Assembly (NCBI RefSeq): GCF_003018115.1
Contig: NZ_CP027457.1
Reading direction: 5' to 3' (one strand)
DNA length: 64,000 nt
DNA from: Escherichia coli
GTDB lineage: Bacteria > Pseudomonadota > Gammaproteobacteria > Enterobacterales > Enterobacteriaceae
Under the pieces are notes generated by a model that was not told the origin of the DNA, did no database searches, and was given only the letters and a program-made list of their open reading frames with translations. Below, piece by piece: positions 1-26,694 of this stretch. How positions within the stretch are numbered: the first letter of the stretch is position 1; every line of letters starts with the position of its first letter. The translations under genes and the position numbers were made by a program.

Positions 1-2
1 GG

Positions 3-272
3 GTGGAGAAAAACATCAAAGTGCCACTGACTGAACCCCAGAAAGCGGGGATCGCGTCATTCTGCCCGTATAACATTGGCCCCGGTAAGTGTTTCCCGTC
101 GACGTTTTATAAACGAATTAATGCAGGCGATCGCCGGGGTGCATGCGAGGCGATTCGCTGGTGGATTAAAGACGGTGGCAGAGACTGCCGTATCCGCTCA
201 AATAACTGTTATGGTCAGGTATCCCGTCGTGACCAGGAGAGCGCGCTGGCGTGCTGGGGTATCGACAGATAA
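3..272 (+). CDS. Phage endolysin (lysozyme-type), C-terminal part; 5' end outside window
   Basis: ORF runs to window edge; C-terminal motifs resemble prophage lysozymes; lies upstream of Rz/Rz1. Confidence 0.6.
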   Translation: MEKNIKVPLTEPQKAGIASFCPYNIGPGKCFPSTFYKRINAGDRRGACEAIRWWIKDGGRDCRIRSNNCYGQVSRRDQESALACWGIDR

Positions 273-546
273 GCAGAATATTTTGCTGAAAAATGACGTT
301 GGCCAACGCGGACGGATAACACGAAATCCTGCGAACTGGCAAAATGTAAGTGAATAACGTCAGGAACATTATTTCACGCAGAGGCACCGTAATGGTGCCT
401 TTGTCATTTCTGCGCTTCGCACAAGCGTAAATAAACCAAAGAACCTTTCAGGATGAGCCCTGGTGGATAACCGGCAGTGGTCTGGTTAACCCTCTTTGGG
501 CTGGTTATTCCTGTGCGCAGGGTTCATCACTAAAAGGAAATAACCG

Positions 547-1119
547 ATGAATATGATGACCGTGCCGTTTCACGGCGATTCTCTTTATGTGGTTAACCAT
601 AACGGCGAACCATACGTTCCCATGAAACCTGTCGTTGAGGGAATGGGTATGACCTGGCAGTCTCAACACCGCAAATTGATGGAGAGATTTAAGACCTGCA
701 TCATCGAAATGATGATTCAGCTCCCCGGTGATACTCAGCGTCGTCTGGTTATCTGTCTTGCTTTACGTAAACTTGCAGGTTGGCTGCAAACCATCAACCC
801 AAATAAAGTTAAACCTGAAATCCGCGACAGAGTCATTCAGTATCAGGAAGAGTGCGACGATGTTCTCTATGAATACTGGACGAAGGGTTTTGTCGTTAAT
901 CCTCGTCAAATGAGCGTGATGGAAGAACTCAATCAGGCTTGCGCTGACATGCAACGGGATAAAAACATTGTCAGTGTGTTTGCTACCGGGCTGAATGAGT
1001 GGAAACAGGTTAAAGCTGCGCATGTATCAAAAATCCGCACATTGATAAACGAAGCGAATCTGCTGATTGATTTTGTCCTAGCTGATACAGGCAAAGGGAA
1101 AATAACAAAGGCGGATTGA
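547..1119 (+). CDS. Phage antirepressor-like regulatory protein (accessory gene between endolysin and spanins)
   Basis: 190-aa ORF; N-terminal region resembles phage antirepressor N-terminal domains; family assignment from recall only. Confidence 0.5.
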   Translation: MNMMTVPFHGDSLYVVNHNGEPYVPMKPVVEGMGMTWQSQHRKLMERFKTCIIEMMIQLPGDTQRRLVICLALRKLAGWLQTINPNKVKPEIRDRVIQYQEECDDVLYEYWTKGFVVNPRQMSVMEELNQACADMQRDKNIVSVFATGLNEWKQVKAAHVSKIRTLINEANLLIDFVLADTGKGKITKAD

Positions 1120-1133
1120 TGGAGAGGTGGCTA

Positions 1134-1268
1134 ATGATATCGGATAAAATCATAACGCTGACAAAGACCATTTGTGTGATTGTCGGCGTTTCATTTTCGC
1201 TAATGATGGTTGCTCTTTTTCTTTCCATAGCCTGGATGGCGTTGAGTTCGGTAGGGCTGGTGGGGTGA
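1134..1268 (+). CDS. Hypothetical small hydrophobic protein (about 44 aa)
   Basis: Short ORF read from sequence with GGAGAGG Shine-Dalgarno-like motif just upstream; single hydrophobic stretch; stop overlaps Rz GTG start; below ORF-track size cut-off. Confidence 0.25.
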
Positions 1269-1708
1269 GCATAAACCGAATTATTTCCGCGTTTACCGTT
1301 ATTCTGCTGGTGGTCTGTGGTGTGCTTAGTCTGGGGCTGAATCATTACCGTGATAACGCCATCGCCTACAAAGAGCAGCGCGATAAAGCCACATCCATCA
1401 TCGATGATATGCAGAAGCGGCAACGTGATGTAGCAGAACTTGACGCCAGATACACAAAGGAGCTTGCTGATGCTAATGCGACTATCGAAAGTCTCCGTGC
1501 TGATGTTTCTGCTGGTCGTAAGCGCCTGCAAGTCGCCGCCACCTGTGCAAAGTCAACGACCGGAGCCAGCAGCATGGGCGATGGAGAAAGCCCAGGACTT
1601 ACAGCAGATGCTGAACTCAATTATTACCGTCTCAGAAGTGGAATCGACAAGATAACCGCGCAGGTTAACTACCTGCAGGAATACATCAGGACGCAATGCC
1701 TGAAATAA
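1265..1708 (+). CDS. Rz: Spanin inner-membrane subunit Rz (GTG start)
   Basis: Internal start of track ORF 1172..1708; product closely resembles lambda Rz (NHYRDNA..YK.QRDK and AGRKRL motifs). Confidence 0.85.
1470..1655 (+). CDS. Rz1: Spanin outer-membrane lipoprotein Rz1, embedded in +1 frame of Rz
   Basis: 61-aa nested ORF with lipobox-like LVVSAC and proline-rich segment, as in lambda Rz1. Confidence 0.7.
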
Positions 1709-1738
1709 TTTTTTTGCAAATCACAAAGTCCATTTAAT

Positions 1739-1765
1739 GAGCCCCGCGATGCGGGGCTTTTTTAT
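1739..1765 (+). terminator. Rho-independent terminator after Rz
   Basis: GC-rich hairpin (gccccgcg..gcggggc) followed by T run. Confidence 0.6.
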
Positions 1766-1910
1766 GTACGCAGTAAACGCGCTTCACACGCGCGACTTAT
1801 GAACACAGAACCTTTCAGGATGACCCTTGAGGATGCCGGTTTGGTGATCGGTGCCTTTCTGTGGGCCGGAATCCTGTGTGACAAGGTTCATCACTAAAAG
1901 GTGTGCACTG

Positions 1911-2453
1911 ATGAATTATCCAACTATCGTTAACGGCATCGATTTTCGAGATCTGATTTTTGTGGCAAACAACGATCCGGTTACAGATTCTTTTATGGTG
2001 GCAAAAGCATTTGGAAAGCTGCCGAAGAACGTAGTTCGTGACATTGAACGAACCATAGAAGCTTGCCCTCCTGGGTTTGATACAAAGCTCAACTTTGAGC
2101 TTTGCTATAAAAACAATGAGTTACAGAATGGTAAGCCGCAAAAATTCTACCGTCTCCGCAAGGATGGGTTGATGCTTTTGGTTATGTCCTACACCAAAAA
2201 AGAAGCAATGCGTATCAAAATTGCTTACATCAACGCATTTAACTGGATGTACGCCATGCTTCAGGTTGGTCATCGTCAATTTGAAGAAGAGAGAAATGCC
2301 GTAATGCTGGAGTACATGAAAGAGAAGGATGTTGCCAGCATGTCAGGTCGCCTGCTAAATCGCTGGGGCAAAATTAAGAAGCCACAGTTGCTGGCTAGAA
2401 TTGAACGCCTTGAACAGCACGGGCAAACCGTAATCCCCGGACTCATCAATTAA
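1911..2453 (+). CDS. Phage regulatory protein, Rha-like
   Basis: Internal Met of track ORF 1851..2453; N-terminal region resembles Rha-family phage regulatory proteins (recall). Confidence 0.55.
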   Translation: MNYPTIVNGIDFRDLIFVANNDPVTDSFMVAKAFGKLPKNVVRDIERTIEACPPGFDTKLNFELCYKNNELQNGKPQKFYRLRKDGLMLLVMSYTKKEAMRIKIAYINAFNWMYAMLQVGHRQFEEERNAVMLEYMKEKDVASMSGRLLNRWGKIKKPQLLARIERLEQHGQTVIPGLIN

Positions 2454-2934
2454 CGGCAGTACCGCGAAACAACCCAAGCCAGTAAGTGGGGAAATAACAC
2501 TGGCAGCCACTGAAAGATGAACCTCCAGCCTTATGGCAAAAAAGATTCTTTGTGGTGGCGGACTGATGGAAAGACATCGGTTATTGCAGAGGCCATTCAA
2601 TGAGTGGTCTCGACAATGGCTTATACCCTACACGGGATAACTTAATTGATATCCTTTTTAACGGATAAAGGCATTTCAGCCTGACATAGCCATGCGCCGT
2701 ATCGTCGCCGTATTCCTGCATTAACAGAGACCGCAGCCCGACAGGGAGACTCCTCTGCGAGAGTGTGCGGGGATAATCAAAAACGATACACACCGGGGTT
2801 TACCGCGTTAACGGAGCGCGGCGTTGTCCCCTCATGGTCGCTGGTCCGGTGCGATGGTGGAAGAAACTGGATTTTGTTGCAACTGATAACCATTATCATT
2901 TTACGGGTCCTTTCCGGCGATCCAGGCCGTTACG

Positions 2935-2946
2935 GGGCGGCGACCT
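2935..2946 (+). other. cosN cohesive-end sequence GGGCGGCGACCT
   Basis: Exact lambda 12-nt cohesive-end sequence read about 175 bp upstream of Nu1 start. Confidence 0.75.
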
Positions 2947-3121
2947 CGCGGGTTTTCGCTATTTATGAAAATTTTCCGGGGAAAATCATGTCGGTACTTC
3001 TCGAACATAACTATTTGTTTTTTCTAATATCGAATCCGTAAAGGTCCGACATGAAAACGCCTGAAAAAGTCATTTTCGGGCACTTTCATGTCGGACCCTG
3101 TATTTGTTGTGAGACTGTTTC

Positions 3122-3641
3122 ATGAAGGTTAATAAAAAGAAACTTGCCGAAATTTTCAACGTGGATCCGCGAACGATTGAACGCTGGCAGTCTCAGGGGC
3201 TCCCTTGCGTCTCCGGAGGTGGTAAGGGCGTTGAATCTGTATTTGATACCGCCACGGCAATTCAGTGGTATGCGCAGAGGGAAGCTGATATCGAAAATGA
3301 AAAACTCCGTAAAGAGGTTGAGGATTACAGGGCTGCCAGCGAGGCAGATCTCCAGCCTGGGACTATTGAGTACGAACGCCATCGACTTACGCGTGCGCAG
3401 GCTGACGCCCAGGAGCTGAAGAATGCCAGAGACTCCGCAGAAGTGGTGGAAACCGCATTCTGTACTTTCGTGCTGTCACGGATCGCAGGTGAAATTGCCA
3501 GTATTCTTGACGGGATCCCTCTCTCAGTACAGCGGCGTTTTCCGGAACTGGAAAACCGACATGTTGATTTCCTGAAACGGGATATTATCAAAGCCATGAA
3601 CAAAGCAGCCGCGCTGGATGAACTGATACCGGGGTTGCTGA

Positions 3642-3667
<26 letters not shown>
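3122..3667 (+). CDS. Nu1: Terminase small subunit
   Basis: 181-aa product near-identical by recall to lambda Nu1. Confidence 0.95.
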
Positions 3668-7348
<3,681 letters not shown>

Positions 7349-7368
<20 letters not shown>

Positions 7369-8668
7369 TCTCCCGCATATTGCCAGCATGGCCTTTAATG
7401 AGCCGCTGATGCTTGAACCCGCCTATGCGCGGGTTTTCTTTTGTGCACTTGCAGGCCAGCTTGGGATCAGCCGCCTGACGGATGCAGTATCCGGCGACAG
7501 CCTGACTGCCGGAGAGGCACCCGCGGCGCTGGCGTTATCCGTTGATGATGACGGACCACGACAGGCCCGCAGTTATCAGGTCATGAACGGCATCGCCGTG
7601 CTGCCGGTGTCCGGCACGCTGGTCAGCCGGACGCGGGCGCTGCAGCCGTATTCGGGGATGAGCGGTTACAACGGCATTATCGCCCGTCTGCAACAGGCTG
7701 CCAGCGACCCGATGGTGGACGGCATTCTGCTCGATATGGACACGCCCGGTGGAATGGTGGCAGGGGCATTTGACTGCGCTGACATCATCGCCCGTGTGCG
7801 TGACATAAAGCCGGTATGGGCGCTGGCCAACGACATGAACTGCAGTGCAGGTCAGCTGCTTGCCAGCGCCGCCTCCCGGCGTCTGGTCACGCAGACCGCC
7901 CGGACAGGCTCCATCGGCGTCATGATGGCTCACAGTAATTACGGCGCTGCGCTGGAGAAACAGGGCGTGGAAATCACGCTGATTTACAGCGGCAGCCATA
8001 AGGTGGATGGCAACCCCTACAGCCATCTACCGGATGATGTCCGGGAAACACTGCAGTCCCGGATGGATGCAACCCGCCGGATGTTTGCACAGAAGGTATC
8101 GGCATATACCGGCCTGTCCGTGCAGGCTGTGCTGGATACCGAGGCTGCAGTGTACAGCGGTCAGGAGGCCATTGATGCCGGACTGGCTGATGAACTTGTT
8201 AACAGTACCGATGCGATCACCGTCATGCGTGATGCACTGGATGCACGTAAATCCCGTCTCTCAGGAGGGCGAATGACCAAAGAGACTCAATCAACAACGG
8301 TTTCAGCCACTGCTTCGCAGGCTGACGTTACTGACGTGGTGCCAGCGACGGAGGGCGAGAACGCCAGCGCGGCGCAGCCGGACGTGAACGCGCAGATCAC
8401 CGCAGCGGTTGCGGCAGAAAACAGTCGCATTATGGGGATCCTCAACTGTGAGGAGGCTCACGGACGCGAAGAACAGGCACGCGTGCTGGCCGAAACCCCT
8501 GGTATGACCGTGGAAACGGCCCGCCGCATTCTGGCAGCTGCACCACAGAGTGCACAGGCGCGCAGTGACACTGCGCTGGATCGTCTGATGCAGGGGGCAC
8601 CGGCACCGCTGGCTGCAGGTAACCCGGCATCTGATGCCGTTAACGATTTGCTGAACACACCAGTGTAA
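7349..8668 (+). CDS. C: Head maturation protease / minor capsid protein C (GTG start)
   Basis: In-frame internal start of track ORF 7214..8668; product matches lambda gpC. Confidence 0.9.
8273..8668 (+). CDS. Nu3: Capsid scaffolding protein Nu3, nested in-frame in 3' part of C
   Basis: Internal ATG (MTKETQ...) in the C frame, as for lambda Nu3. Confidence 0.7.
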   Translation: MTKETQSTTVSATASQADVTDVVPATEGENASAAQPDVNAQITAAVAAENSRIMGILNCEEAHGREEQARVLAETPGMTVETARRILAAAPQSAQARSDTALDRLMQGAPAPLAAGNPASDAVNDLLNTPV

Positions 8669-8677
8669 GGGATGTTT

Positions 8678-9010
8678 ATGACGAGCAAAGAAACCTTTAC
8701 CCATTACCAGCCGCTGGGCAACAGTGACCCGGCACATACCGCAACCGCGCCCGGCGGACTGAGTGCGAAAGCGCCTGCAATGACCCCGTTGATGCTGGAC
8801 ACCTCCACTCGTAAGCTGGTTGCGTGGGATGGCACCACCGACGGTGCTGCCGTTGGCATTCTGGCGGTTGCTGCTGACCAGACCAGCACCACGCTGACGT
8901 TCTACAAGTCCGGCACGTTCCGTTATGAGGATGTCCTCTGGCCGGAGGCTGCCAGCGACGAGACGAAAAAACGGACCGCGTTTGCCGGAACGGCAATCAG
9001 CATCGTTTAA
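8678..9010 (+). CDS. D: Head decoration protein D
   Basis: Product matches lambda gpD. Confidence 0.9.
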
Positions 9011-9030
9011 CCTGACCCTTCATCACTAAG

Positions 9031-9051
9031 GCCGCCTGTGCGGCTTTTTTT
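9031..9051 (+). terminator. Hairpin plus T run between D and E (possible attenuator)
   Basis: gccgcctgtgcggc hairpin followed by T run. Confidence 0.4.
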
Positions 9052-9064
9052 ACGGGATTTTTTT

Positions 9065-10090
9065 ATGTCGATGTACACAACCGCCCAGCTGCTGGCGGCA
9101 AATGAGCAGAAATTTAAGTTTGATCCGCTGTTTCTGCGTCTTTTTTTCCGTGAGAGCTATCCCTTCACCACGGAGAAAGTCTATCTCTCACAAATTCCTG
9201 GACTGGTAAACATGGCGCTGTACGTTTCGCCGATTGTTTCCGGTGAGGTTATCCGTTCCCGTGGCGGCTCCACCTCTGAATTTACGCCGGGATATGTCAA
9301 GCCGAAGCATGAGGTGAATCCCCAGATGACCCTGCGTCGCCTGCCGGATGAAGATCCACAGAATCTGGCGGACCCGGCTTACCGCCGCCGTCGCATCATC
9401 CTGCAGAACATGCGAGACGAAGAGCTGGCCATTGCTCAGGTCGAAGAGATGCAGGCAGTTTCTGCCGTGCTTAAGGGCAAATACACCATGACCGGTGAAG
9501 CCTTCGATCCGGTTGAGGTGGATATGGGCCGCAGTGAGGAGAATAACATCACGCAGTCCGGCGGCACGGAGTGGAGCAAGCGTGACAAGTCCACGTATGA
9601 CCCGACCGACGATATCGAAGCCTGCGCGCTGAACGCCAGCGGTGTGGTGAATATCATCGTGTTCGATCCGAAAGGCTGGGCGCTGTTCCGTTCCTTCAAA
9701 GCCGTCAGGGAGAAGCTGGATACCCGTCGTGGCTCTCATTCCGAGCTGGAGACAGCGGTGAAAGACCTGGGTAAAGCGGTGTCCTATAAGGGGATGTATG
9801 GCGATGTGGCCATCGTCGTGTATTCCGGACAGTACGTGGAAAATGGTGTCAAAAATAACTTCCTGCCGGACAACACAATGGTGCTGGGGAACACTCAGGC
9901 ACGCGGTCTGCGCACCTATGGCTGCATTCAGGATGCGGACGCACAGCGCGAAGGCATTAACGCCTCTTCCCGTTACCCGAAAAACTGGGTGACCACCGGC
10001 GATCCGGCGCGAGAGTTCACCATGATTCAGTCAGCACCGCTGATGCTGCTGGCTGACCCTGATGAGTTCGTGTCCGTACAACTGGCGTAA
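9065..10090 (+). CDS. E: Major capsid protein E
   Basis: Internal Met of track ORF 9038..10090; 341-aa product matches lambda gpE. Confidence 0.97.
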   Translation: MSMYTTAQLLAANEQKFKFDPLFLRLFFRESYPFTTEKVYLSQIPGLVNMALYVSPIVSGEVIRSRGGSTSEFTPGYVKPKHEVNPQMTLRRLPDEDPQNLADPAYRRRRIILQNMRDEELAIAQVEEMQAVSAVLKGKYTMTGEAFDPVEVDMGRSEENNITQSGGTEWSKRDKSTYDPTDDIEACALNASGVVNIIVFDPKGWALFRSFKAVREKLDTRRGSHSELETAVKDLGKAVSYKGMYGDVAIVVYSGQYVENGVKNNFLPDNTMVLGNTQARGLRTYGCIQDADAQREGINASSRYPKNWVTTGDPAREFTMIQSAPLMLLADPDEFVSVQLA

Positions 10091-10131
10091 TCATGGCCCT
10101 TCGGGGCCATTGTTTCTCTGTGGAGGAGTCC

Positions 10132-10530
10132 ATGACAAAAGATGAACTGATTGCCCGTCTCCGCTCCCTGGGTGAACAACTGAACCGTGATGTCAGCCTG
10201 ACGGGGACGAAAAAAGAACTGGCACTCCGTGTGGCAGAGCTGGAGGAGGAGCTTGATGACACGGATGAAACTTCCGGTCAGGATACCCCTCTCAGCCCGG
10301 AAAATGTGCTTACCGTACATAAAAATGAGGTGGTATCAGCGCAGCCAGATACAGTGATTCAGGATACGTCTGAGCTGGTCACGGTCGTGGCACTGGTGAA
10401 GCTGCATACTGATGCACTTCACGCCATGCGGGATGAACCTGTGGCATTTGTGCTGCCGGGAACGGCGTTTCGTGTCTCTGCCGGTGTGGCAGCCGAAATG
10501 ACAGAGCGCGGCCTGGCCAGAATGCAATAA
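10132..10530 (+). CDS. FI: DNA packaging protein FI
   Basis: Internal Met of track ORF 10093..10530; product matches lambda gpFI. Confidence 0.85.
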   Translation: MTKDELIARLRSLGEQLNRDVSLTGTKKELALRVAELEEELDDTDETSGQDTPLSPENVLTVHKNEVVSAQPDTVIQDTSELVTVVALVKLHTDALHAMRDEPVAFVLPGTAFRVSAGVAAEMTERGLARMQ

Positions 10531-10541
10531 CGGGAGGTGCT

Positions 10542-10895
10542 GTGGCTGATTTCGATAACCTGTTCGATGCTGCCATTGCCCGTGCTGATGAAACGATACG
10601 CGGGTACATGGGAACGTCAGCCACCATGACATCCGGTGAGCAGTCCGGTGCTGTGATACGTGGTGTTTTTGATGACCCTGAAAATATCAGCTATGCCGGA
10701 ATGGGTGTCCGCGTTGAAGGCTCTACACCGTCATTATTTGTGCGGACGGATACGGTGCGTGCCGTGCGGCGTGGTGACACGATGACCATTAACGGCGGGA
10801 TTTTCTGGGTGGATCGTGTTTCTACGGATGACGGGGGCAGCTGTTATCTCTGGCTCAACCGTGGGCAACCACCCGCTGTTAACCGGCGACGATAA
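10542..10895 (+). CDS. FII: Head-tail connector protein FII (GTG start)
   Basis: Product matches lambda gpFII. Confidence 0.9.
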   Translation: MADFDNLFDAAIARADETIRGYMGTSATMTSGEQSGAVIRGVFDDPENISYAGMGVRVEGSTPSLFVRTDTVRAVRRGDTMTINGGIFWVDRVSTDDGGSCYLWLNRGQPPAVNRRR

Positions 10896-10910
10896 ACGCA
10901 GGGTGAAATT

Positions 10911-11486
10911 ATGGCGATAAAAGGGCTTGATCAGGCGATTGACAATCTGAGCCGGGTTCGTAAAAACGCCATTCCGGCGGCTTCAGCAATGACGATTAAC
11001 CGCGTGGCCACAACGGCGATTAATCAGTCTTCATCACAGGTTGCCCGGGAGACAAAGGTACGCCGGAAACTGGTTAAGGAACGGTCCAGACTGAAACGGG
11101 CCACGGTCAGAAATCCGAATGCCAGAATTATCGTTAACCGCGGTGATCTCCCTGTGATTAAGCTGGGGATCAGAATGCTGGGGCGTCGTCCGGACAGCAT
11201 ACTCAAAGCCGGTCAGCATCGTTATCAGCGGGCATTTATCCAGCGATTAAATAATGAGCGCTGGCATGTTATGCAACGTCTTCCCCAGGCCAGATATGAG
11301 GAGGGCAATGATGACAAGGGCAGGAAAAAGCGTAATCGCCTTCCCATTCAGGTGGTGAAAATCCCGATGGCGGCCCCACTGAAACAGGCGTTTGATGAAA
11401 ACGTTGACCGTATCCGTCGAGAACGCCTGCCCAAAGAACTGGCATATGCGCTGAAACAACAACTGAGGATTGCGATAAAACGATGA
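10911..11486 (+). CDS. Z: Tail completion protein Z
   Basis: Product matches lambda gpZ. Confidence 0.9.
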   Translation: MAIKGLDQAIDNLSRVRKNAIPAASAMTINRVATTAINQSSSQVARETKVRRKLVKERSRLKRATVRNPNARIIVNRGDLPVIKLGIRMLGRRPDSILKAGQHRYQRAFIQRLNNERWHVMQRLPQARYEEGNDDKGRKKRNRLPIQVVKIPMAAPLKQAFDENVDRIRRERLPKELAYALKQQLRIAIKR

Positions 11487-11878
11487 AACATACTGATATT
11501 CGTGCCGCAGTGCTGGATGCACTCGAGCAGCATGAACACGGGGCGACGCTGTTTGATGGTCGCCCCGTTGTTTTTGACGAAGAGGATTTTCCCGCGATCG
11601 CGGTTTATCTGACGGATGCAGAGTATACCGGTGAAGAGCTGGATGCAGATACCTGGCGGGCCACACTGCATATTGAGGTGTTTTTACCGGCACAGGTACC
11701 GGATTCAGAGCTTGATCTGTGGATGGAAAGCCGGATTTACCCGGCGATAACTGCGATCCCGGCACTGGCGGGCATGATTACCGCGATGGTTACGCAGGGC
11801 TATGAGTATCGTCGTGATGACGATATGGCATTGTGGAGTTCTGCAGATCTGACTTATTCCATTACATACGAGATGTGA
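11483..11878 (+). CDS. U: Tail terminator protein U
   Basis: Product matches lambda gpU. Confidence 0.9.
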
Positions 11879-11885
11879 GGACGAT

Positions 11886-12635
11886 ATGGCAACACCAAAT
11901 CCCCTGGAGCCGGTAAAAGGTGCCGGTACCACACTGTGGGTTTACACCGGCAAGGGTGATGCTTATGCAAACCCGTTGTCAGACGATGAGTGGACGCGCC
12001 TGGCAAAAATAAAAGATCTGACCCCCGGCGAGATGACGGCAGAATCCTACGATGATAACTATCTGGATGATGAGGATGCTGACTGGGTATCCACCGGGCA
12101 GGGGCAGAAATCTGCCGGTGACACCAGTTTTACGCTGGCCTGGAAGCCGGGCGAGAAAGGGCAGCGCGATTTGATTGCCTGGTTTGACAGCAGTGAGAGC
12201 CGGGCCTACAAAATCCGTTTCCCGAATGGCACGGTGGATGTGTTTCGTGGCTGGGTGAGCGCCATTGGTAAAGCGGTGACCGCCAAAGAGGTGATCACCC
12301 GTACGGTAAAAATCACCAATATCGGTCGTCCGTCGCTGGCGGAAGATCAGGGGGACATCACACCGGTCACCGGTATTACCGTGACGCCACCAACGGGCAA
12401 TGTGGCAAAAGGTCAGAATATCACCCTGACCGTGGCTGTTCAGCCGGAAGGGGCGACGGATAAAACCTTCCGCGCCACGTCGGCGAATCAGAATTTTGCG
12501 ACCATTACCGTGAAAGGGAACACGATCACGGTGAAAGGTGTTGCGGCCGGTAAAGCGCAGATCCCTGTTGTCACCGGCAATGGTGAGTTTGCGGCGGTGG
12601 CGGAGATCACCGTCACGGATGGCGCTGCAGGCTGA
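11886..12635 (+). CDS. V: Major tail tube protein V
   Basis: Product matches lambda gpV. Confidence 0.95.
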
Positions 12636-12650
12636 GAGGGGAGATAAAGC

Positions 12651-16082: not shown

Positions 16083-16408
16083 AAACCTTTCGCTGGAAAG
16101 TGAAGCCGGATATGGAGGTGAACTCGCAGCCATCGGTGCGTGAAGTGCGTTTTGGTGACGGGTACTCACAGCGTATGGCGGCAGGGCTGAATGCTGACCT
16201 GAAAACATACCGGGTGATGCTTTCCGTGACCCGGGAGGAGGCCCGGCATCTGGAAGCGTTCCTGGCAGAGCACGGGGGCTGGAAGGCATTTTTGTGGAAG
16301 CCACCCTATGCATACCGGCAGATAAAGGTGACCTGTGCCGGGTGGTCTGCGCGGGTCGGGATGTTGCGCGTTGAGTTCAGCGCGGAGTTTAAGCAGGTGG
16401 TGAACTGA
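16079..16408 (+). CDS. M: Tail tip protein M
   Basis: Product matches lambda gpM. Confidence 0.9.
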   Translation: MKTFRWKVKPDMEVNSQPSVREVRFGDGYSQRMAAGLNADLKTYRVMLSVTREEARHLEAFLAEHGGWKAFLWKPPYAYRQIKVTCAGWSARVGMLRVEFSAEFKQVVN

Positions 16409-17106
16409 TGCAGGATATTCACGAAGAAAGCCTGAACGAGTCGGTTAAGTCAGAGCAGTCACCGCGGGTGGTGCTCTGGGAAATCGACCTGACGGTGCAG
16501 GGCGGTGAGCGGTATTTTTTCTGCAATGAGCTGAATGAAAAAGGGGAGCCGGTGACCTGGCAGGGGCGTGAATATCAGGCGTACCCGATTGAGGGCAGCG
16601 GCTTTGAGATGAACGGAAAGGGCAGCAGTGCCCGCCCGTCGCTGACAGTGTCCAATCTTTTCGGCCTTGTCACCGGGATGGCGGAGGATTTGCAGAGCCT
16701 GGTGGGGGCCACGGTGGTCCGCCGCCGGGTGTATGCGCGTTTTCTGGATGCGGTGAATTTTGTGGCGGGGAATCCGGAGGCCGACCCGGAGCAGGAGCTG
16801 ACGGACCGGTGGGTGGTGGAGCAGATGTCAGCGCTGACGGCCATGACGGCCTCGTTTGTGCTGGCGACACCGACGGAGACGGACGGTGCGCTGTTTCCCG
16901 GTCGCATCATGCTGGCGAACACCTGTATGTGGGATTACCGGGGCGATGAATGCGGGTATAACGGTCCGGCAGTGGCGGATGAGTTCGACAACCCCACCAC
17001 GGATATCCGGAAGGACAGATGCAGTAAATGCATGCGCGGGTGTGAGATGCGCGGCATGGTGGCTAATTTCGGCGGTTTCCTTTCCATTAATAAACTTTCG
17101 CAGTAA
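16408..17106 (+). CDS. L: Tail tip protein L
   Basis: Product matches lambda gpL. Confidence 0.9.
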   Translation: MQDIHEESLNESVKSEQSPRVVLWEIDLTVQGGERYFFCNELNEKGEPVTWQGREYQAYPIEGSGFEMNGKGSSARPSLTVSNLFGLVTGMAEDLQSLVGATVVRRRVYARFLDAVNFVAGNPEADPEQELTDRWVVEQMSALTAMTASFVLATPTETDGALFPGRIMLANTCMWDYRGDECGYNGPAVADEFDNPTTDIRKDRCSKCMRGCEMRGMVANFGGFLSINKLSQ

Positions 17107-17116
17107 ATCCCGTTTT

Positions 17117-17860
17117 ATGACACAGACTGAATCAGCGATTCTGGCGCATGCCCGGCGGTGTGTGCCAGCGGAGTCGTGCGGCTTCGTGATAAGCACCCCG
17201 GAGGGCGAACGGTACCAGCCCTGCGTGAATATCTCCGCAGAGCCGGAGGCGTATTTTCGTATTGCGCCGGAAGACTGGCTGCAGGCACAGATGCAGGGGG
17301 AGATTGTGGCGCTGGTCCACAGTCATCCCGGTGGTCTGCCCTGGCTGAGCGAGGCGGACCGGCGGCTGCAGATAAAGAGTGCCCTGCCCTGGTGGCTGGT
17401 CTGCCGGGGTGAAATTCACCGGTTCCGCTGTGTGCCGCACCTGACCGGACGGCGCTTTGAACACGGTGTGACGGACTGTTACACCCTGTTCCGGGATGCA
17501 TACCATCTGGCGGGGATTGAGATGCCGGATTTTCATCGCGAGGATGACTGGTGGCGCAACGGTCAGAACCTGTACCTGGACAACCTGGCGGAAAACGGCT
17601 TTTGCCGGGTGTCTCCGTCCTGTGCACAGGCAGGCGATATTCTGCTGTGCTGCTTTGGTTCATCGGTGCCGAATCATGCCGCCATTTACTGTGGCAACGG
17701 TGAACTGCTTCACCATATACCTGAACAACTGAGTAAACGGGAGAGGTATTCTGAAAAATGGCAACGACGAACGCATTCTGTCTGGCGTCACCGCCACTGG
17801 TCCGCATCTGCCTTCACGGGGATTTACAACGATTTGGTCGCCGCATCAGTCTGTATGTGA
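17117..17860 (+). CDS. K: Tail tip assembly protein K (JAMM/MPN-like HSHPGG motif; NlpC/P60-like C-terminal region)
   Basis: Internal ATG of track ORF 16856..17860; product matches lambda gpK; true start uncertain (reference lambda annotation uses a shorter form). Confidence 0.75.
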   Translation: MTQTESAILAHARRCVPAESCGFVISTPEGERYQPCVNISAEPEAYFRIAPEDWLQAQMQGEIVALVHSHPGGLPWLSEADRRLQIKSALPWWLVCRGEIHRFRCVPHLTGRRFEHGVTDCYTLFRDAYHLAGIEMPDFHREDDWWRNGQNLYLDNLAENGFCRVSPSCAQAGDILLCCFGSSVPNHAAIYCGNGELLHHIPEQLSKRERYSEKWQRRTHSVWRHRHWSASAFTGIYNDLVAASVCM

Positions 17861-18438
17861 ACACGGCAGCGGAGGCCATCCGTGCCCTGTCGCTGCAGGT
17901 GCCGGGATTCCGCTGTCAGATGAACGAAGGCTGGTACCAGATACGTATTGCCGGTGAGGATACCGCGCCGGAGGTGGTGTATGCCCGTCTTCATGAACCG
18001 CTGAGCGGGAGGGCCGTGATTCATATTGTACCGAGGCTGGCAGGGGCCGGGGGAAATGGTGTTTTTCAGGTGGTGCTGGGGGCTGCAGCCATCGTGGGCT
18101 CTTTCTTCACCGCCGGTGCAACGATGGCGTTGTGGGGCGCAGCCCTGAGTGCCGGAGGGCTGACTGCCACCACGATGCTGTTCTCACTGGGTGCCAGCAT
18201 GATACTGGGTGGTGTGGCCCAGATGCTGGCCCCGAAGGCAAAGACGCCGGAATACAAAAGTACGGATAACGGTAAACAGAACACGTATTTTTCGTCACTG
18301 GACAACATGATTGCTCAGGGTAACCCGATGCCGGTGCCTTACGGTGAAATGCTGGTTGGTTCACGACGGATATCCCAGGACATCAGCACCCGTGATGAGG
18401 GCGGAGACGGGAAAGTGGTGGTTATCGGGCGGGGATAA
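17758..18438 (+). CDS. I: Tail tip assembly protein I
   Basis: Product matches lambda gpI; overlaps K 3' end as in lambda. Confidence 0.9.
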   Translation: MATTNAFCLASPPLVRICLHGDLQRFGRRISLYVNTAAEAIRALSLQVPGFRCQMNEGWYQIRIAGEDTAPEVVYARLHEPLSGRAVIHIVPRLAGAGGNGVFQVVLGAAAIVGSFFTAGATMALWGAALSAGGLTATTMLFSLGASMILGGVAQMLAPKAKTPEYKSTDNGKQNTYFSSLDNMIAQGNPMPVPYGEMLVGSRRISQDISTRDEGGDGKVVVIGRG

Positions 18439-18678
18439 AAATAAAAAAATCCCGCAGAGTTAGCGGAGCTGCGGGAGAGAACGATGAAGATTAACGTTAT
18501 GGAGTTATTTTTCAGGCATCAAAAATGTAACGCAGCGTCATTATTGCGGCTACAGGCAATTGCCGGAAATGTGAAGAGTTTCAGAAATTTTATTCCGTCA
18601 TGACACAGGCACCCTCCGGGGTGCCTGTTGTTTTCTGGCATAAACAGATTCAGACATCAGACAGGAGAGGGGGACAGA

Positions 18679-21600
18679 GTGGGTAAAGGGGGCGGCAAGG
18701 GGCACACACCGCGTGAGGCGAAGGACAATCTCAAATCCACGCAGATGATGAGCGTGATTGATGCCATTGGTGAGGGACCGGTGGAAGGTCCGGTGAAGGG
18801 ACTGCAGAGTATTCTGGTGAACAAAACCCCGCTGACGGACACGGACGGTAATCCCGTGATACACGGTGTGACCGCCGTCTGGCGTGCCGGGGAGCAGGAG
18901 CAGACACCACCTGAAGGCTTTGAGTCCTCCGGGGCGGAAACCGCACTGGGCGTGGAGGTGTCGAAGGCAAAGCCGGTGACGCGCACCATCACGTCAGCGA
19001 ACATTGACCGTCTGCGGGTCACCTTCGGGGTGCAGTCACTGGTGGAGACCACCTCAAAGGGTGACCGTAATCCCTCTTCTGTCCGGCTGCTGATTCAGCT
19101 TGAGCGTAATGGTAACTGGGTGACGGAGAAGGATGTCACCATTAACGGCAAGACCACCTCGCAGTACCTGACGTCGGTGATTCTGAATAATCTCCCTGAG
19201 CGCCCCTTTAACATCCGGGTGGTCAGGGTGACGGCGGACAGTACCACGGACCAGCTGCAGAACAGAACGCTGTGGTCGTCATACACCGAAATCATCGATG
19301 TGAAACAGTGCTACCCGAACACGGCCATTGTGGGGCTGCAGGTGGATGCGGAGCAGTTCGGTGGCCAGCAGATGGTGGTGAACTACCATATCCGCGGCCG
19401 CATCATTCAGGTGCCGTCAAACTATGACCCGGAAAAACGCACCTACAGCGGTATCTGGGACGGGAGTCTGAAACCGGCATACAGCAATAACCCGGCCTGG
19501 TGCCTGTGGGACATGCTGACTCACCCGCGCTACGGGATGGGAAAACGCCTGGGGGCCGCGGATGTGGACAAGTGGGCGCTGTATGCCATCGGGCAGTACT
19601 GCGACCAGACGGTCCCGGATGGTTTCGGGGGCACAGAGCCGCGGATGACCTTTAATGCGTACCTGTCACAGCAGCGTAAGGTGTGGGATGTCCTGGGGGA
19701 TTTCTGCTCGGCGATGCGCTGTATGCCGGTATGGAACGGTCAGACGCTGACGTTCGTTCAGGACCGTCCGTCGGATGTGGTGTGGCCGTACACGAACAGC
19801 GATGTGGTGGTGGATGATAACGGCGTGGGGTTCCGCTACAGCTTCAGTGCCCTGAAGGACCGGCACACGGCGGTGGAGGTGAATTACACCGACCCGCAGA
19901 ACGGCTGGCAGACTTCCACGGAACTGGTGGAAGACCCGGATGCCATCCTGCGCTACGGGCGCAACCTGCTGAAGATGGATGCGTTCGGCTGTACCAGCCG
20001 CGGTCAGGCCCACCGTGCCGGACTGTGGGTGATAAAGACAGAACTGCTGGAAACGCAGACGGTGGATTTCACGCTCGGGTCTCAGGGGCTGCGGCACACA
20101 CCCGGTGACATCATTGAAATCTGTGATAACGACTATGCCGGGACCCTGACCGGCGGACGCATCCTGTCCATCGATGCCGCCAGCCGCACACTGACGCTGG
20201 ACCGTGAGGTGACACTGCCGGAAGCAGGTACATCGACGGTGAACCTGATTAACGGCCGTGGTAAGCCGGTGCGCGTGGACATCACTGCACACCCCGCCCC
20301 TGACCGGATACAGGTCAGCGTCCTGCCTGATGGCGTGGCGACATACGGTGTGTGGGGACTCTCCCTGTCGTCACTGCGTCGTCGCCTGTTCCGCTGTGTT
20401 TCCATCCGGGAAAACACGGACGGCACCTTTGCCATCACGGCGGTGCAGCACGTACCGGAAAAAGAAGCCATTGTGGATAACGGGGCCCGCTTTGAGCCGA
20501 TGTCCGGCTCACTGAACAGCGTCATCCCGCCGGCAGTGCAGCACCTCACGGTGGAGGTGAGTGCCTCAGACGGCCAGTATCTGGCGCTGGCGAAATGGGA
20601 CACGCCGCGGGTGGTGAAGGGCGTGCGTTTCAGTCTGCGCCTGACCAGCGGAAACGGTGAAAACAGCCGCCTGGTGACCAGCGCCATCACGGCGGACACG
20701 GAGCACCGTTTCAGTGGCCTGCCTCTGGGGGAATACACCCTGACGGTCAGGGCGATAAACAGCTATGGCCAGCAGGGCGAACCTGCCACCACCACATTCC
20801 GGATTAATGCACCGGCGGCACCGGCCAGCATTGAACTGACGCCGGGCTATTTTCAGATAACGGTGGTCCCGCATCCTGCGGTGTATGACCCGACGGTACA
20901 GTATGAATTCTGGTTCTCAGAAAAACGCATCACGGACACGGCACAGGTGGAAACCTCAGCCCGTTATCTGGGTACCGACAGCCAGTGGAGCGTCTCCGGC
21001 CCGCACATTAAGCCGGGGAAGGATTTCTGGTTTTATGTGCGCAGCGTCAACCTGGTGGGGAAATCTGCGTTTGTGGAGGCCAGCGGGCAGGCCAGCAATG
21101 ATGGTGAAGGGTATCTGGAAATTTTCCGTGGGCTGATAGATGAGGCGCTGCTGGGGAAGGCACTGAAAGAGCGTATTGATGCGTCAGCCCTGCGTACTGA
21201 GGTCACGCAACTGGAAGAAGACATCCGCCAGCGGCTGGAGACGGATGTTGCGGAAGTGACCCGAAAAATAGGGGAGGCGGAAAACAGCCTCACGCAGCTG
21301 GTTGCGAAAAAGAATGAGGACCAGACGCTGGCCATCGCGCAGGTGAGTCAGCAGGTGGACCGGGTGAGCAGTGAAATCACACAGACAGTCAGCCAGAGCA
21401 CGGAGGAAAACGCCAGGCAGATAGCGCAGGTCCGCCAGTACGTGGATGACAAAGGGAGTGAAATCACCTCGACCACGGATAAAAAGCTGGAAGACCAGAG
21501 CGCGACCATACAGCAGATACAGCAGGTCCAGTCAGACACGAATGATGAGCTGGCAGCGCTGTACATGCTGAAGGTGCAGAAAACGAAAAACGGCATTCCG

Positions 21601-22374
21601 TATGTTGCCGGTATTGGTGCGGGGATTGAGGATGCTGATGGCCGGACGCTGAGCAATATTCTGCTGCAGGCGGACCGTATCGCGATGATTACCCCGGAGA
21701 ACGGCAACACCACGCCGCTGTTTGTGGCGCAGGGGAACCAGCTGTTCATGAACGACGTGTTCCTGAAGCGACTGTTTGCGGTGAGTATCACGTCATCCGG
21801 CAATCCCCCGACGTTCTCCCTGACGCCGGAGGGCAGGCTGACAGCCCGCAATGCGGATATCAGCGGAGCTGTTACAGCGAATTCTGGCACGCTCAATAAT
21901 GTCACCATTAACGAGAACTGTGTCATCAGAGGGAAACTGTCTGCGAACCAGATTGAAGGCGATCTGGTGAAGACGGTGGGGAAAGCCTTTCCCCGGAATA
22001 ACAGTTATGCCCGTGGCACGATAACCGTCACGGTTTACGATGACCAGGGCTTCGACCGGCAGATTATCATTCCACCGGTGCTGTTTCGTGGGACGAAACA
22101 CCAGAACGTCAACAGCCCGAATCAGCAGTCGTACTGGTATTCAACCTGTAAGCTGCAGGTGCTGAAAAACGGGGCAGAGATTTTTCATGAACCGGCAACG
22201 GATGTCAGCCGGGTGTTCTCATCGGTGATTGACATGCCAGCAGGACGGGGTCATGTCACCCTGACGTTTAATGTGTCGTCTACCGGCGCGAACAACTGGA
22301 CACCGACGACGTACATCAGTGATTTACTGGTTGTGGTGATGAAAAAATCCACGGCGGGAATCAGTATCAGCTGA
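18679..22374 (+). CDS. J: Central tail fibre / host specificity protein J (GTG start), about 1231 aa
   Basis: In-frame GTG with GGAGAGG motif upstream inside track ORF 18628..22374; N-terminal three-quarters match lambda gpJ; distal region diverges. Confidence 0.9.
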
Positions 22375-22442: not shown

Positions 22443-23066
22443 ATGCGGTATTTATACGGAGCCATTTTATTTTTTACTACCCTGCCGGCAGTAATGACTT
22501 TTCCTGCACAGGCTGCAGGCGGACACGGTGCATTTTCCGTGGGATATGCTCAGGTTCACCCGGGCGGCGTGCCGGTATTGTCCGGTACCGGTGCCCGTAC
22601 AGGTGATTTAAAAGGGATCAACGTGAAATACCGTTATGAATTCACGGACCATCTGGGCGGCATAGCCTCGCTGAGTTACGCCTCTGCGAAAAAGAGCAGA
22701 ACCACGATGACCGGGGATAAGGCATTTCATTATGAAAGTCTGCGTGGCCGTTATGTGAGCCTGATGGCGGGGCCGGTCTGGCAGGTCAGTGAGCAGCTCA
22801 GCCTTTATGGCATGGCCGGGATGGCGCACACCCGCTGGTCTGACAGTGTTCAGGATTACCGGCGTGATGAAGTGACACCGGGGGATGTCAGGGTGACCAC
22901 CACTGCCAGTGATGGCCATTCTGCACGTCATCTGACGCTGGCATGGGGGGCAGGGCTTCAGTTTAATCCGGCGGATACGGTGGCGGTTGATCTTGCGTAC
23001 GAAGTGGCCGGTCATGGTGACTGGCGAACGGATGCGTTTATTGTTGGGATTGGATACCGTTTCTGA
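22443..23066 (+). CDS. lom: Outer membrane protein Lom (Ail/Lom family)
   Basis: Internal Met of track ORF 22404..23066; signal peptide; beta-barrel ending in F; matches lambda Lom. Confidence 0.85.
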   Translation: MRYLYGAILFFTTLPAVMTFPAQAAGGHGAFSVGYAQVHPGGVPVLSGTGARTGDLKGINVKYRYEFTDHLGGIASLSYASAKKSRTTMTGDKAFHYESLRGRYVSLMAGPVWQVSEQLSLYGMAGMAHTRWSDSVQDYRRDEVTPGDVRVTTTASDGHSARHLTLAWGAGLQFNPADTVAVDLAYEVAGHGDWRTDAFIVGIGYRF

Positions 23067-23200: not shown

Positions 23201-23217
23201 TTTATTGGTGGAAAGGT

Positions 23218-25068
23218 ATGACGGTTAAAATTTCTGGTGTGCTGAAGGACGGGGCCGGTAAGCCGGTACCGGGATGCACGATAGAGCTGAAAGCGCGACG
23301 CACAACGGAGACGGTGATTGTCACCACGGTGGCGTATGGTCAGCCGGGGGAAACCGGCAGTTACAGTATGGATGTTGAGCCGGGTCTGTACCGGGTGACG
23401 CTGAACACGGAAGGGTACGCGCCGTCATATGTGGGTGACATTCTGGTGAAGGCGGAGTCTGCACCGGGAACGCTGAATAAATTTCTGATGGACCAGGAGG
23501 ACGCACAGTATTACCCGAAAGCCCTTGCAGAGCTGGAAGCGGTGGCCGCGGAAATCCTGAAACGTGCGGAAGCGTCAGCGGCGAGTGCAGAGGAAGCGAA
23601 GAAACGGGCAGAGAATGCGCGGGGACCGAAGGGGGATAAGGGAGACACCGGGCCACAGGGTATTCCCGGGCCAAAAGGCGATACCGGCGAGCGGGGGCCA
23701 AAGGGTGAGCGTGGTGAGAGGGGGCCGCAGGGGCTTCAGGGTGTGAAAGGTGAACGGGGAGAGAAGGGCGAAAAAGGCGAGCCGGGAGGACCGGATGCGA
23801 CGACGGCACAGAAGGGAATTGTGCAGTTAAGCAGCGCAACGGACAGTGATGATGAAACGAAGGCAGCCACCCCGAAAGCGGTGAAAGCGGCAATGGACAA
23901 AGCGGACGGATGCCTGGAGAAAGCGAAAAACGGTGACGATATCCCGGATAAGGTGCAGTTTCTGAACACTGTGGGAGCAGCCAGAGTATACGGGTGGGAC
24001 ATTCATACGGGGGCCGGTGAATGGACCACGAGCGAGTTTGTCGCCTGGCTGAAAGCCAAAGGGGCATTTGACCAGCCTTACTGGATGATGAAGGCATCAC
24101 TGCATGCGGGATTCAATAAGGTCATCACGGATGTCGGACCGGGAAAACTTAATCTGGGTGGCTGTGTCATTGAGGTGATGGGGAAGTATGAGGCAGCCAT
24201 AGTCCGGGTCACCATTGGCGAATACGGTGCAACGGGGTTTATTAATGGCACGGTCTGTACCTGTACGGTTTACGGCGACACACAGTATTTCCACTGGCGG
24301 GTGGATTACAGCACAAAAAACAAACCGGATACGGTCAGCCAGCGGGATGCCAGCACGACGCAGAAAGGTGTGGTGCAGTTAAGCAGTGATACTGGCAGTA
24401 ATGACGAAACAAAGGCAGCCACGCCGAAGGCCGTGAAGGCGGCAATGGATGTGGCAAATGAAGCGAAAACAAAGGCAGAAGAGGCTGCAGCAGGAGGTGG
24501 TGTTCCCGGTCCGAAAGGAGATAAAGGGGACACGGGGCCGGCAGGTCCGGCTGGGCCGGGGGGCCCTCAGGGACCAAAGGGGGATACTGGCGCTCCCGGG
24601 GCAAAAGGTGAGAAAGGAGCCACCGGCGCAACCGGGCCACAGGGAGCAAAAGGGGATAAAGGTGATCCCGGCCCTCAGGGACCAAAGGGGGATACTGGCG
24701 CTCCTGGGGCAAAAGGTGAGAAAGGAGCCACCGGCGCAACCGGGCCACAGGGACCAAAAGGGGATAAAGGTGATCCCGGTCCCCGGGGGGCAACAGGCCC
24801 ACAGGGACCAGCTGGCTCACCGGCAGGTGGTTTGCATGCTGTTGGGGCATTTGTCTTTGCTCAGGCCAGTATAAGTAACAGTGAAAAATATGCCGCAGGT
24901 GCCGTGCTTGCGGGAAGTAAACTGAGAGAATGTAGCATTCAACTGGGCTCTCAGAAAGCAGCCACATTAACCGGTAATACACTGCCAGGAACATGGCGGG
25001 TCTGTAGTCCACTTCAGGTCAGTTCAATATATCCTTACTGTGTGGGGCTGTTTCAGCGTATATCGTGA
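23218..25068 (+). CDS. stf: Side tail fibre protein with collagen-like Gly-X-Y domains (Stf-like)
   Basis: N-terminus resembles lambda Stf; two copies of a conserved fibre motif (KG-I/V-VQLSS...[10 protein letters not shown]); two collagen-like G-X-Y blocks. Confidence 0.8.
24568..24783 (+). repeat. Near-perfect tandem duplication (2 x 108 bp, 12 G-X-Y triplets each) inside the tail fibre gene
   Basis: Two adjacent 108-bp units differing at a handful of positions, in frame. Confidence 0.75.
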
Positions 25069-25335
25069 AGAGAACGACGGCAGTCAGGTGGGAACCGCCA
25101 GTGTAGCACGGTAAGGGGCAGGAAACGCTGAGCAGTGCAGATGAGATACAGGCATACAGGGGGGAGAAATAACAGACAAAAAGATGGGGGACCATCACCT
25201 CCCCCATGAACTGCGTTGATTATGTCATTATTGTGAAGGTATTCATTATGCCGGGTAAATAGTGCCACGGAAAAGTTAATTCCGGAAGTGACGGAACTCT
25301 CATTTTTCGTGCATCCTGTTGATATGGATGATTTT

Positions 25336-25665
25336 TCATATTTCCGGAAGTCCGTATTTTGCCCGGGCGCGGTTGCATGCTTCATTCGCGATGCCATTTT
25401 CTCCGGACATTGCAAATTCCCGGCATGTGGACGGACGGTTTTTGTAAACAGAGCAATATGCGTTTTCACCCGGAGTTCCCGCCAGAGCGACACATCGGGG
25501 ATTTTTCTGACTGGTGCCGCGCATACAGCGATGAAAGGGGGATATTTGCTCAGTGAGACTGACCGGAACCTTTCCGCCAGCATCGTCAGCTTCTGCCCAG
25601 TAAAAAGAGACGCGGAAAAATGCACAACAGGCACCACACGTCATGCATGGATTCGGATTGTTCAT
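25336..25665 (-). CDS. YkgJ/UPF0153-like protein with C-x2-C-x2-CC motif (putative metal-binding), prophage cargo
   Basis: 109-aa ORF with CMTCGACC motif and further conserved Cys; opposite strand to phage late genes; hairpin plus T run on minus strand just downstream (about 25185..25205). Confidence 0.55.
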
Positions 25666-25830
25666 TTTTATACTATTTGTTGTTTTTTCAGCGATCAGTT
25701 CAAAGGACGCTGAAAAAAAACATTCTCCAAAATTAAATTATAACTATTTGATTTTATGGATAGAGGCATGCTTTTTACGCAAAAGTAAAAAGCATGCCAA
25801 ATTTGCTATTAACTCTTTGAATATTCAGCA

Positions 25831-26694
25831 CTAATCATCTATTTCGGTTGCCTTCTTATTCAGCAGACGAGAAGCGCGCCAGTAAACCAGCAACATCAGG
25901 CCCATTACGATAGTCAGCGTAATGCTGGTGGCTGCACCAAACGGCCAGTCACGAATATTGAGGAACTGTACCTTGATGACGTTACCGATCAGCAGGTTTT
26001 TCGCACCGCCCATCAGGTCGGACACATAGAACAGGCCCATCGCTGGCAGCATCACCAGCAGACATCCGGCAATAATCCCCGGCATCGTCAGTGGAATAAT
26101 GATGCGGATAAAAGTCTGTAACTTGCTGGCACCGAGATCGCGCGCCGCCTCAAGCAACGGCTTATCCAGTTTTTCGATACTGGAGTACAGCGGCATCACC
26201 ATAAACGGTAGCAGAATGTAAACCAGACCGATAATCACCGCACTGGGCGTGAACATGATACGGATTGGTGTGTCGATAACGCCCAGCCAGAGCAAAAACT
26301 CGTTGAGATAGCCTTTGGTGCTGAGGAAAATTTTCAGCCCGTAGATGCGAATCAGTGAGTTGGTCCAGAAGGGAACAATCAGCAGAAACAGCAGCAGCGG
26401 ACGCACCTTGTGTGGCAGCTTCGCCAGAAACCAGGCAAACGGGTAGCCCAGCACCAGGCAGGCGAGAGTGGCGATCAGCGCCATATTCAGCGAGTGCAAT
26501 AGCACTTCAAAATAGAGCGGATCGAGCAGACGCGTGTAGTTATCCAGCGTAAAGACCATTTTGACGAAACTGGCGTCGTCGCGGGTCAAAAAGCTGGTGC
26601 CAATGATCATCAGGTTGGGCAGAAAGACAAACAACACAAGCCAACCGACAATAGTGACAATCACTACATTCTGGAACTTACTTGTGTTCTTCAT
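25831..26694 (-). CDS. potB: Spermidine/putrescine ABC transporter permease PotB
   Basis: 287-aa product matches E. coli PotB except the last few residues (ends KKATEIDD here). Confidence 0.93.

Follow-up and report, generated by a model that had tools for sequence, protein, structure and literature searches.

The 64,000-nucleotide stretch of the Escherichia coli contig NZ_CP027457.1 (assembly GCF_003018115.1) that we have analyzed, referred to in its full length as the window, contains in positions 1-25850 what we consider, with a probability of about 90%, to be the late half of a lambda-like and probably Shiga toxin (Stx)-converting temperate phage, which is integrated at an attachment site (attB) overlapping the 3' end of potB and splits the spermidine/putrescine ABC importer operon potABCD into potAB and potCD. 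This reading is carried by the junction between prophage and chromosome (attR) and its core, by the altered end of potB, by the lack of potCD in the window and by the layout found in related lysogens. The original prediction, which was made from the letters of the window, had described about 25.8 kb of lambda-like phage DNA, and matches to PHROG families in the order of lambda and to the prophage of strain W24 bear this out, with the limit placed at 25850. It had also let the phage DNA end about 760 bp from the potB stop codon; this distance is instead the one between the stop codons of the tail-fibre gene (25068) and potB (25831), and the DNA in between is itself of phage origin, comprising a gene of the YkgJ family and the P' arm of the phage attachment site attP.

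The potABCD operon in prophage-free genomes

In the prophage-free genomes of K-12 and GF3-3, potC and potD are contiguous with potB, whose stop codon overlaps the start of potC by 4 bp (ATGA), in line with the predicted succession of the two genes. GF3-3 is the nearest backbone genome and contains an intact potABCD operon; its alignment to the window forms one block of 38,120 bp (window 25851-63968, 99.63% identity). Within the window, orthologues of potA and potB are present and potB is not followed by contiguous potC and potD. Both genes were, as anticipated, absent from the entire 64 kb in tblastn searches with PotC and PotD from GF3-3 and in a blastn search with the DNA from potC to cobB, where the PotC query returned only paralogous similarity to PotB (42% over 69 residues) and the nucleotide query 0 matches.

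The attR junction and the altered end of potB

When aligned to the prophage-free potB-potC junction, a comparison that the prediction had called for, the window departs from the chromosomal sequence at the core CCTTCTTATTCA, which reads TGAATAAGAAGG on the potB strand. Homology to prophage-free chromosomes starts exactly at 25851, both in the alignment with GF3-3 and in a search of the population. The core is common to attR in the window, attB in K-12 and the opposite attachment site (attL) in strain 99-3311; it occurs as a single copy within the window, while the attL copies are seen in relatives. On the potB strand it encodes the codons L-N-K-K close to the end of the gene, which is where the junction of lambdoid prophages at the potB/potC attB is located. 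Because chromosomal homology begins at 25851, the core lies inside potB, and the last six codons and the stop codon of this gene are phage-encoded. The alignment shows the junction to be a classical attR, the product of conservative site-specific recombination with its core within the 3' end of a gene.

The view of an intact potA-potB pair on the minus strand thus has to be divided. PotA is unchanged (378/378 residues identical to GF3-3), whereas PotB is identical to its counterpart over residues 1-281 (281/281), keeping 281 of 285 native residues, and diverges thereafter, the native C-terminus ...RLLNKK-VELE* being replaced by the phage-encoded ATEIDD* (ATEIDN* in the strain Sakai). As the replacement 3' end is provided by the phage, potB stays open and stops at a phage-supplied codon. 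Both proteins were called by the curated cut-offs of NCBIfam equivalogs and score above them, and so does PepT (Table 1).

In the proposed course of events, a tyrosine integrase of the lambda-Int type, with an arm-binding domain as found in relatives, would recombine the phage into the attB at the end of potB, whose core lies 13 nt ahead of the ATG of potC. After integration, potA and potB would remain under the control of the potA promoter, with PotB ending in ATEIDD*. On the attL side, potC would follow directly after the phage int gene in the same orientation and retain its native Shine-Dalgarno sequence and start codon, and about 50 kb of prophage would come to lie between the potA promoter and potCD.

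The P' arm of about 250 bp beside the core aligns with the attR of the Sakai prophage Sp6 and is identical to the attR of 99-3311, as found for members of this group of prophages, and the right ends of Stx1a phages on deposit match it at 87.5%. It contains the motif TTTTGGAGA, which is conserved in the attR of Sp6, the arm motif common to both being TCTCCAAAA. In its general form TTTTGG(A/G)G(A/G), this motif is found once in the attR arm of the window and three times in tandem, in one orientation, in the attL arm of 99-3311 (30034-30066 of the stretch read), and the repeats are plausible candidates for arm-type integrase (Int) sites. The arm also holds a perfect hairpin with a 14-bp stem (GGCATGCTTTTTAC / GTAAAAAGCATGCC) at 25765-25798, which is largely conserved in the attR of Sp6. 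The 91 nt of minus strand that surround it (25745-25835) reach an RNA folding energy of -26.9 kcal/mol (z = -4.3), with 0/200 shuffled sequences folding as well. We have considered this hairpin as terminator of potAB read-through and rejected it in this role, since it is stable but followed by a U tract on neither strand; it could serve as a palindrome in attP that is bound by a protein, or affect the end or the stability of an RNA.

The YkgJ-like phage gene is located directly downstream of potAB in the same orientation and may be co-transcribed with them from the host potA promoter. Transcription from this promoter would then proceed past the new potB stop, through the hairpin at 25765-25798 and the YkgJ-like gene, up to the terminator-like site at about 25207-25174, whose fold is not significantly better than that of shuffled sequences (z = -1.3).

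The far side of the prophage in related lysogens

The prediction that the prophage separates potAB from potCD finds support in the prophage-free arrangement, in the shared core and in the far side of five relatives, from which we infer that the prophage in the window would carry int, attL, potC and potD at its own far side. The layout potD-potC-attL-int-xis...tail-attR-potB-potA is present in each of the five lysogens inspected (99-3311, O157:H7 NE1127, DDG220, EC2257 and Sakai), all of which contain intact potC and potD genes and, beside attL and potC, an excisionase and a tyrosine integrase with arm-binding domain. The PotC accession in 99-3311, NE1127 and EC2257 is the same as in prophage-free GF3-3. 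In 99-3311, an Stx2c prophage ends with exo-xis-int, and 166 bp further on follow intact potC and potD and then cobB; its DNA from the end of the tail-fibre gene over the YkgJ gene, attR and potB to potA is 99.5% identical to the window. The same arrangement from tail-fibre end to potA is found in eight independent complete genomes (98.8-99.5% identity). The layout assigned to the far side of this particular genome is drawn by analogy, because its tail-fibre protein has no record and no genome matches exactly.

In attL, the core is followed by 13 native nt and then by the ATG of potC, so that 25 nt of host DNA are found upstream of the potC start. The attL also contains a mini-ORF (open reading frame) in the old potB frame, ATG-AAT-AAG-AAG-GTG-GAA-CTC-GAA-TGA (MNKKVELE*), which is present in 4/4 attL sequences aligned (30113-30139 of the stretch read in 99-3311). 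Its ATG is made by the phage base that precedes the core, its stop codon overlaps the ATG of potC and it is not preceded by an obvious Shine-Dalgarno sequence. The mini-ORF could preserve translational coupling to potC or be due to chance; as the attL arm is 99% conserved, there is no power to test for selection on it.

Among the closest known systems is Sp6 of Sakai (NC_002695.2 1541611-1590033), which is annotated as 'prophage Sp6; lambda-like phage' between potC (ECs_1500) and potB (ECs_1570) and whose counterpart in EDL933 lies between Z1763 potC and Z1830 potB. Sp6 shares with the window the attB, the core, the P' arm of about 250 bp with its hairpin and arm motif and the substitute PotB tail, with one residue changed (ATEIDN* compared to ATEIDD*), and it is equally oriented, with its late genes towards potB and int beside potC. 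It differs in its structural genes, which are of an unrelated type with a prohead protease/capsid fusion in the head module, and in carrying the type III secretion system effector genes espX7, espN, espK and espO and an IS2 element near attR, whereas the phage in the window has the lambda-type series Nu1-A-W-B-C-D-E...J-lom-stf and the YkgJ-like gene at attR. Similarly, the Stx2c prophage of 99-3311 shares the integration site but contains head genes with a ClpP-protease/capsid fusion. The site is also the one used by the potC-site Stx2 prophages of O113:H21 and other Shiga toxin-producing E. coli that are negative for the locus of enterocyte effacement (PMC9453080).

Frequency of the insertion and previous descriptions

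To place the insertion in the population, we used a 601-bp probe centred on the attB of K-12. Of 5,425 complete E. coli genomes, 3,800 matched it without interruption and about 1,625 were split at the core, the split junctions being those that match as the pieces 1-314 and 301-601. In total, 5,425/5,426 genomes matched the junction probe. With at least 80% of the query covered, the int-attL-potC junction was found in 1,402 genomes and the attR junction of the window in 653. From these counts, about 26-30% of complete E. coli genomes have a prophage at this site.

Both the site and the splitting of the operon are already known from published work (PMC9453080, PMC8190617, PMC3486847, PMC8065619). 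The gene potC is among the listed insertion sites of Stx phages (PMC8065619), the four Stx2 phages at potC examined in one study are reported to share one highly homologous type of integrase (PMC9453080), prophage J of an O104:H4 isolate was assigned to potB/potC (PMC3486847), and Sp6 and its equivalents are tabulated between potC and potB (PMC8190617). PMC8065619 cites Steyert et al. 2012 for the potC site; the main text of the cited study (PMC3491183) contains no mention of potC, potB or spermidine, and the attribution comes from PMC8065619 and PMC9453080.

Gene content and mosaicism of the late half

By composition and ORF listing, the first 25 kb or so of the window are GC-rich, with ORFs aligned in one direction on the plus strand, and E. 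coli backbone follows. The gene order from 3122 to 25068 is that of lambda, as defined by PHROG matches of 10 proteins with E = 0 to 1e-74, and the lambda-type gene set from Nu1/A through J-lom-stf constitutes a lambda-like siphovirus module. A near-identical relative shows the Pfam families Phage_Nu1, GpA_ATPase, gpW, Phage_portal_2, Peptidase_S49, HDPD, Phage_cap_E, Packaging_FI, Phage_attach and Minor_tail_Z. All late ORFs from terminase to tail fibre are full-length and intact in the window. The small late genes (antirepressor, Rz, Rha, W, D, FI, FII, Z, U, G, T, M, L, K and I) were named from the annotation of W24. Because the left edge of the window cuts the endolysin gene, the prophage is seen in its late half only. 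A lysozyme (PF00959) is encoded just upstream of the antirepressor in 8/8 relatives, and of the 26 contigs with an identical antirepressor, all eight that were examined contain stxA/stxB (PF00161 RIP and PF02258 SLT_beta) 5-7 kb upstream of it. The prophage in the window is thus probably Shiga-toxin-converting. Its stx genes would be expected some 5 kb beyond the left edge of the window, as in these relatives, at the position that stxA-stxB take in Stx-converting phages, between the Q antiterminator and the lysis genes. The coordinates of all features are listed in Table 1.

Table 1. Features of the phage DNA, the junction and the adjoining chromosome in the window.
Feature	Position	Strand	Evidence or remark
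Endolysin gene, 3' part	3-272	+	Cut by window edge; matches lysozyme coding sequence of W24 prophage
Antirepressor (P22_AR_N), 190 aa	547-1119	+	Identical protein on 26 contigs
Rz-type lysis protein	1265-1708	+	W24 annotation; PF03245 in relatives
Rha-family regulator	1911-2453	+	W24 annotation; PF09669 in relatives
Terminase small subunit	3122-3667	+	phrog_57 E = 8e-74
Terminase large subunit	3642-5567	+	phrog_15 E = 0
Head module: W, portal, protease, decoration, capsid, FI, FII	5564-10895	+	phrog_21, phrog_53, phrog_6020; W24 annotation
Portal	5767-7368	+	
S49 head protease/scaffold	7349-8668	+	
Decoration protein (D)	8678-9010	+	
Major capsid (major head protein)	9065-10090	+	
Tail module Z, U, V, G, T, H, M, L, K, I	10911-18438	+	phrog_41, phrog_24; W24 annotation
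V, major tail protein	11886-12635	+	
Tape measure H	13503-16082	+	
J, central tail fibre / host-specificity protein	18628-22374	+	phrog_31 E = 0
Lom-family outer membrane protein	22443-23066	+	phrog_108 E = 5.5e-80
Side tail fibre, chimeric, 616 aa	23218-25068	+	phrog_366
Terminator-like hairpin and T tract	25174-25207	-	Pattern scan; downstream of YkgJ-like gene
CxxCxxCC / YkgJ-family cysteine-cluster gene	25336-25665	-	PF03692 E = 6.3e-12; RefSeq annotation of same gene in 99-3311
Candidate arm-type Int binding site	25724-25732	-	Motif TTTTGGAGA; P' arm
Perfect hairpin, 14-bp stem	25765-25798		GGCATGCTTTTTAC / GTAAAAAGCATGCC; P' arm, 33 nt beyond new potB stop
potB, 287 codons	25831-26694	-	NF007044 551.6 bits, cut-off 348; 25831-25850 phage-derived
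attR core, 12 bp	25851-25862		CCTTCTTATTCA (TGAATAAGAAGG on potB strand); three-way alignment of window, K-12 and 99-3311 attL
potA, intact	26678-27814	-	NF006987 731.9 bits, cut-off 482
pepT, divergent neighbour of potA	28064-29293	+	NF003976 677.5 bits; start of unbroken backbone

Positions 1-23718 are 99.3% identical to the annotated Stx1a prophage of strain W24 (NZ_CP141591.1), which is the best match for the left 11 kb, where positions 1-11119 are 99.955% identical with 5 mismatches. The two prophages share the gene order from endolysin to the N-terminus of the tail fibre and differ in their attachment site, which is ompW in W24, in the right end, which in W24 contains DUF4376 and ORF6N genes, and in several tail genes that are annotated as frameshifted in W24 and intact in the window. 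Within the tail-fibre gene, similarity to the ompW-site Stx1a phage stops near 23718 and similarity to potB-site prophages begins at 24562, which places the switch between about 23718 and 24562 and leaves only the last 1.3 kb or so of the phage DNA matching potB-site phages. The resulting exact chimeric product of 616 residues has no record in a collection of 15 billion proteins, and no genome in the searched collections matches the window exactly. In strain 2012C-4431, both phage types are present at separate loci.

Bacteriophage lambda itself has the same families of late genes in the same order (Nu1, A, W, B, C, D, E, FI, FII, Z, U, V, G, T, H, M, L, K, I, J, lom, stf), and its attP with arm-type repeats and its Int with arm-binding domain have equivalents in relatives of the phage in the window. 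The attB of lambda is intergenic, between gal and bio, whereas the site used here is inside an operon and alters the end of a gene, and the DNA of the two phages is only distantly related.

The chromosomal backbone

To the right of potA, we asked whether the low-GC stretch at 39-47 kb is a further island, for instance e14 at icd. This was ruled out, the stretch being native and collinear with GF3-3 and containing iraM, ycgX, bluRF, ycgZ-ymgABC and pdeG, with a GC minimum of 31.5% at 39-40 kb; no prophage of the e14 type is found at icd (37443-38693). A gene for an autotransporter adhesin of the ECIAI39_1904 family (46716-49364) is an intact ORF of 882 aa in the window and is annotated as frameshifted in GF3-3.

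Expression of potCD in lysogens

As stated in the original prediction, the expression of potCD cannot be read from the window. Published arrays of O157:H7 strains with a prophage at the same site give an indication of it. In EDL933, the array signal of potC (Z1763), as given in the supplement of PMC2907692, rose from a log2 value of 11.7 in the wild type to 13.4 in an rpoS mutant, and the same supplement lists a parallel change for potA (Z1831, 10.1 to 12.0) and potB (Z1830, 7.8 to 10.9). In Sakai, potC (ECs1500) showed a significant change of -2.14-fold at a growth transition (PMC2241611). Hence, potC mRNA is present and regulated in EDL933 and Sakai despite the split, and expression is not abolished there. 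Because there is almost no host DNA upstream of potC, its transcripts must either originate within phage DNA or arise by processing of phage-derived transcripts, and read-through from the exo-xis-int side would be their most likely source. By analogy with these arrays, potCD would also still be transcribed from the phage side in the genome of the window. We tentatively propose, at somewhat less than even odds, that in lysogens of this class, which make up about a quarter of complete E. coli genomes, potCD are uncoupled from the potA promoter and depend instead on transcripts that are initiated within the prophage and pass through int and attL.

Alternative explanations

Several points weigh against the reading of an integrated phage that splits the operon. 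The side of the prophage with int, attL, potC and potD lies beyond the window. The element is mosaic, with late genes that are 99.3-99.96% identical to the ompW-located prophage of W24, and a history of recombination between prophages is therefore possible. The array data stem from other strains and are hybridisation signals rather than mapped transcripts. Finally, the int-potC interval of 99-3311 and the 3' part of its int gene contain no convincing sigma-70 promoter, a standard scan finding none on the potC strand and a relaxed scan only weak ones (8-9 of 12).

The mosaicism could point to an origin in which the junction is genuine but the prophage arose by chromosomal rearrangement involving two prophages already in the genome, of which one was at potB/potC and the other at ompW or elsewhere. 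Its far end would then not be beside potCD, which would lie at some distance, adjoining half of a different prophage. Such an origin would account for a late module of the W24 type that switches within the tail-fibre gene to leave a short end of the potB-site type, it has a precedent in O157:H7, where an inversion of 650 kb between the prophage at potC and a second one has been reported (PMC10925052), and the two phage types do coexist in 2012C-4431. However, the ompW-site and potB-site prophages have the same chromosomal orientation, as seen in W24 and the window, and a single crossover would therefore delete the potB-ompW interval and not yield the arrangement seen. In addition, the right-hand backbone is perfectly collinear with GF3-3 over 38 kb, and exchange between phages before integration, which is the norm among lambdoid phages, is a simpler source of mosaicism, so that we regard such a rearrangement as improbable. 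Slightly less probable still is a defective remnant, whose left part, possibly including potCD, was deleted rather than displaced. The left half of the prophage is outside the window, Sp6 contains a truncated exonuclease and insertion sequences, and large deletions, of 47 kb, are documented for a compound potC prophage (PMC10925052); yet the late genes from terminase to tail fibre have remained intact, none of the lysogens inspected has lost potC or potD and the junction probe is matched in all but one of the genomes. We give hardly any credence to the phage-potB junction being an assembly join in a chimeric contig, one of the outcomes that would have overturned the original prediction. Prophage repeats do cause misassemblies and nothing else speaks for it, whereas the break coincides exactly with the 12-bp core that is common to attB and attL, the adjoining 200 bp of phage DNA belong to the conserved P' arm that is also found in Sp6, and the same junction recurs in the independent complete genomes and the larger set with this attR described above.

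Implications

A prophage that is integrated at the end of potB and separates potAB from potCD thus remains the best explanation for the left part of the window. The Sakai genome already came with an annotation of Sp6 at the junction between potB and potC, and the insertion is real but ordinary, with little weight as a discovery. For annotation, its value lies in fixing the boundary of the phage at 25851-25862 and in showing that the C-terminus of PotB is rewritten by the phage. If the proposed transcription of potCD from the prophage is true, half of a spermidine importer would be under phage-dependent control, the stoichiometry of PotAB and PotCD would be decoupled and induction or excision of the prophage would act as a switch.

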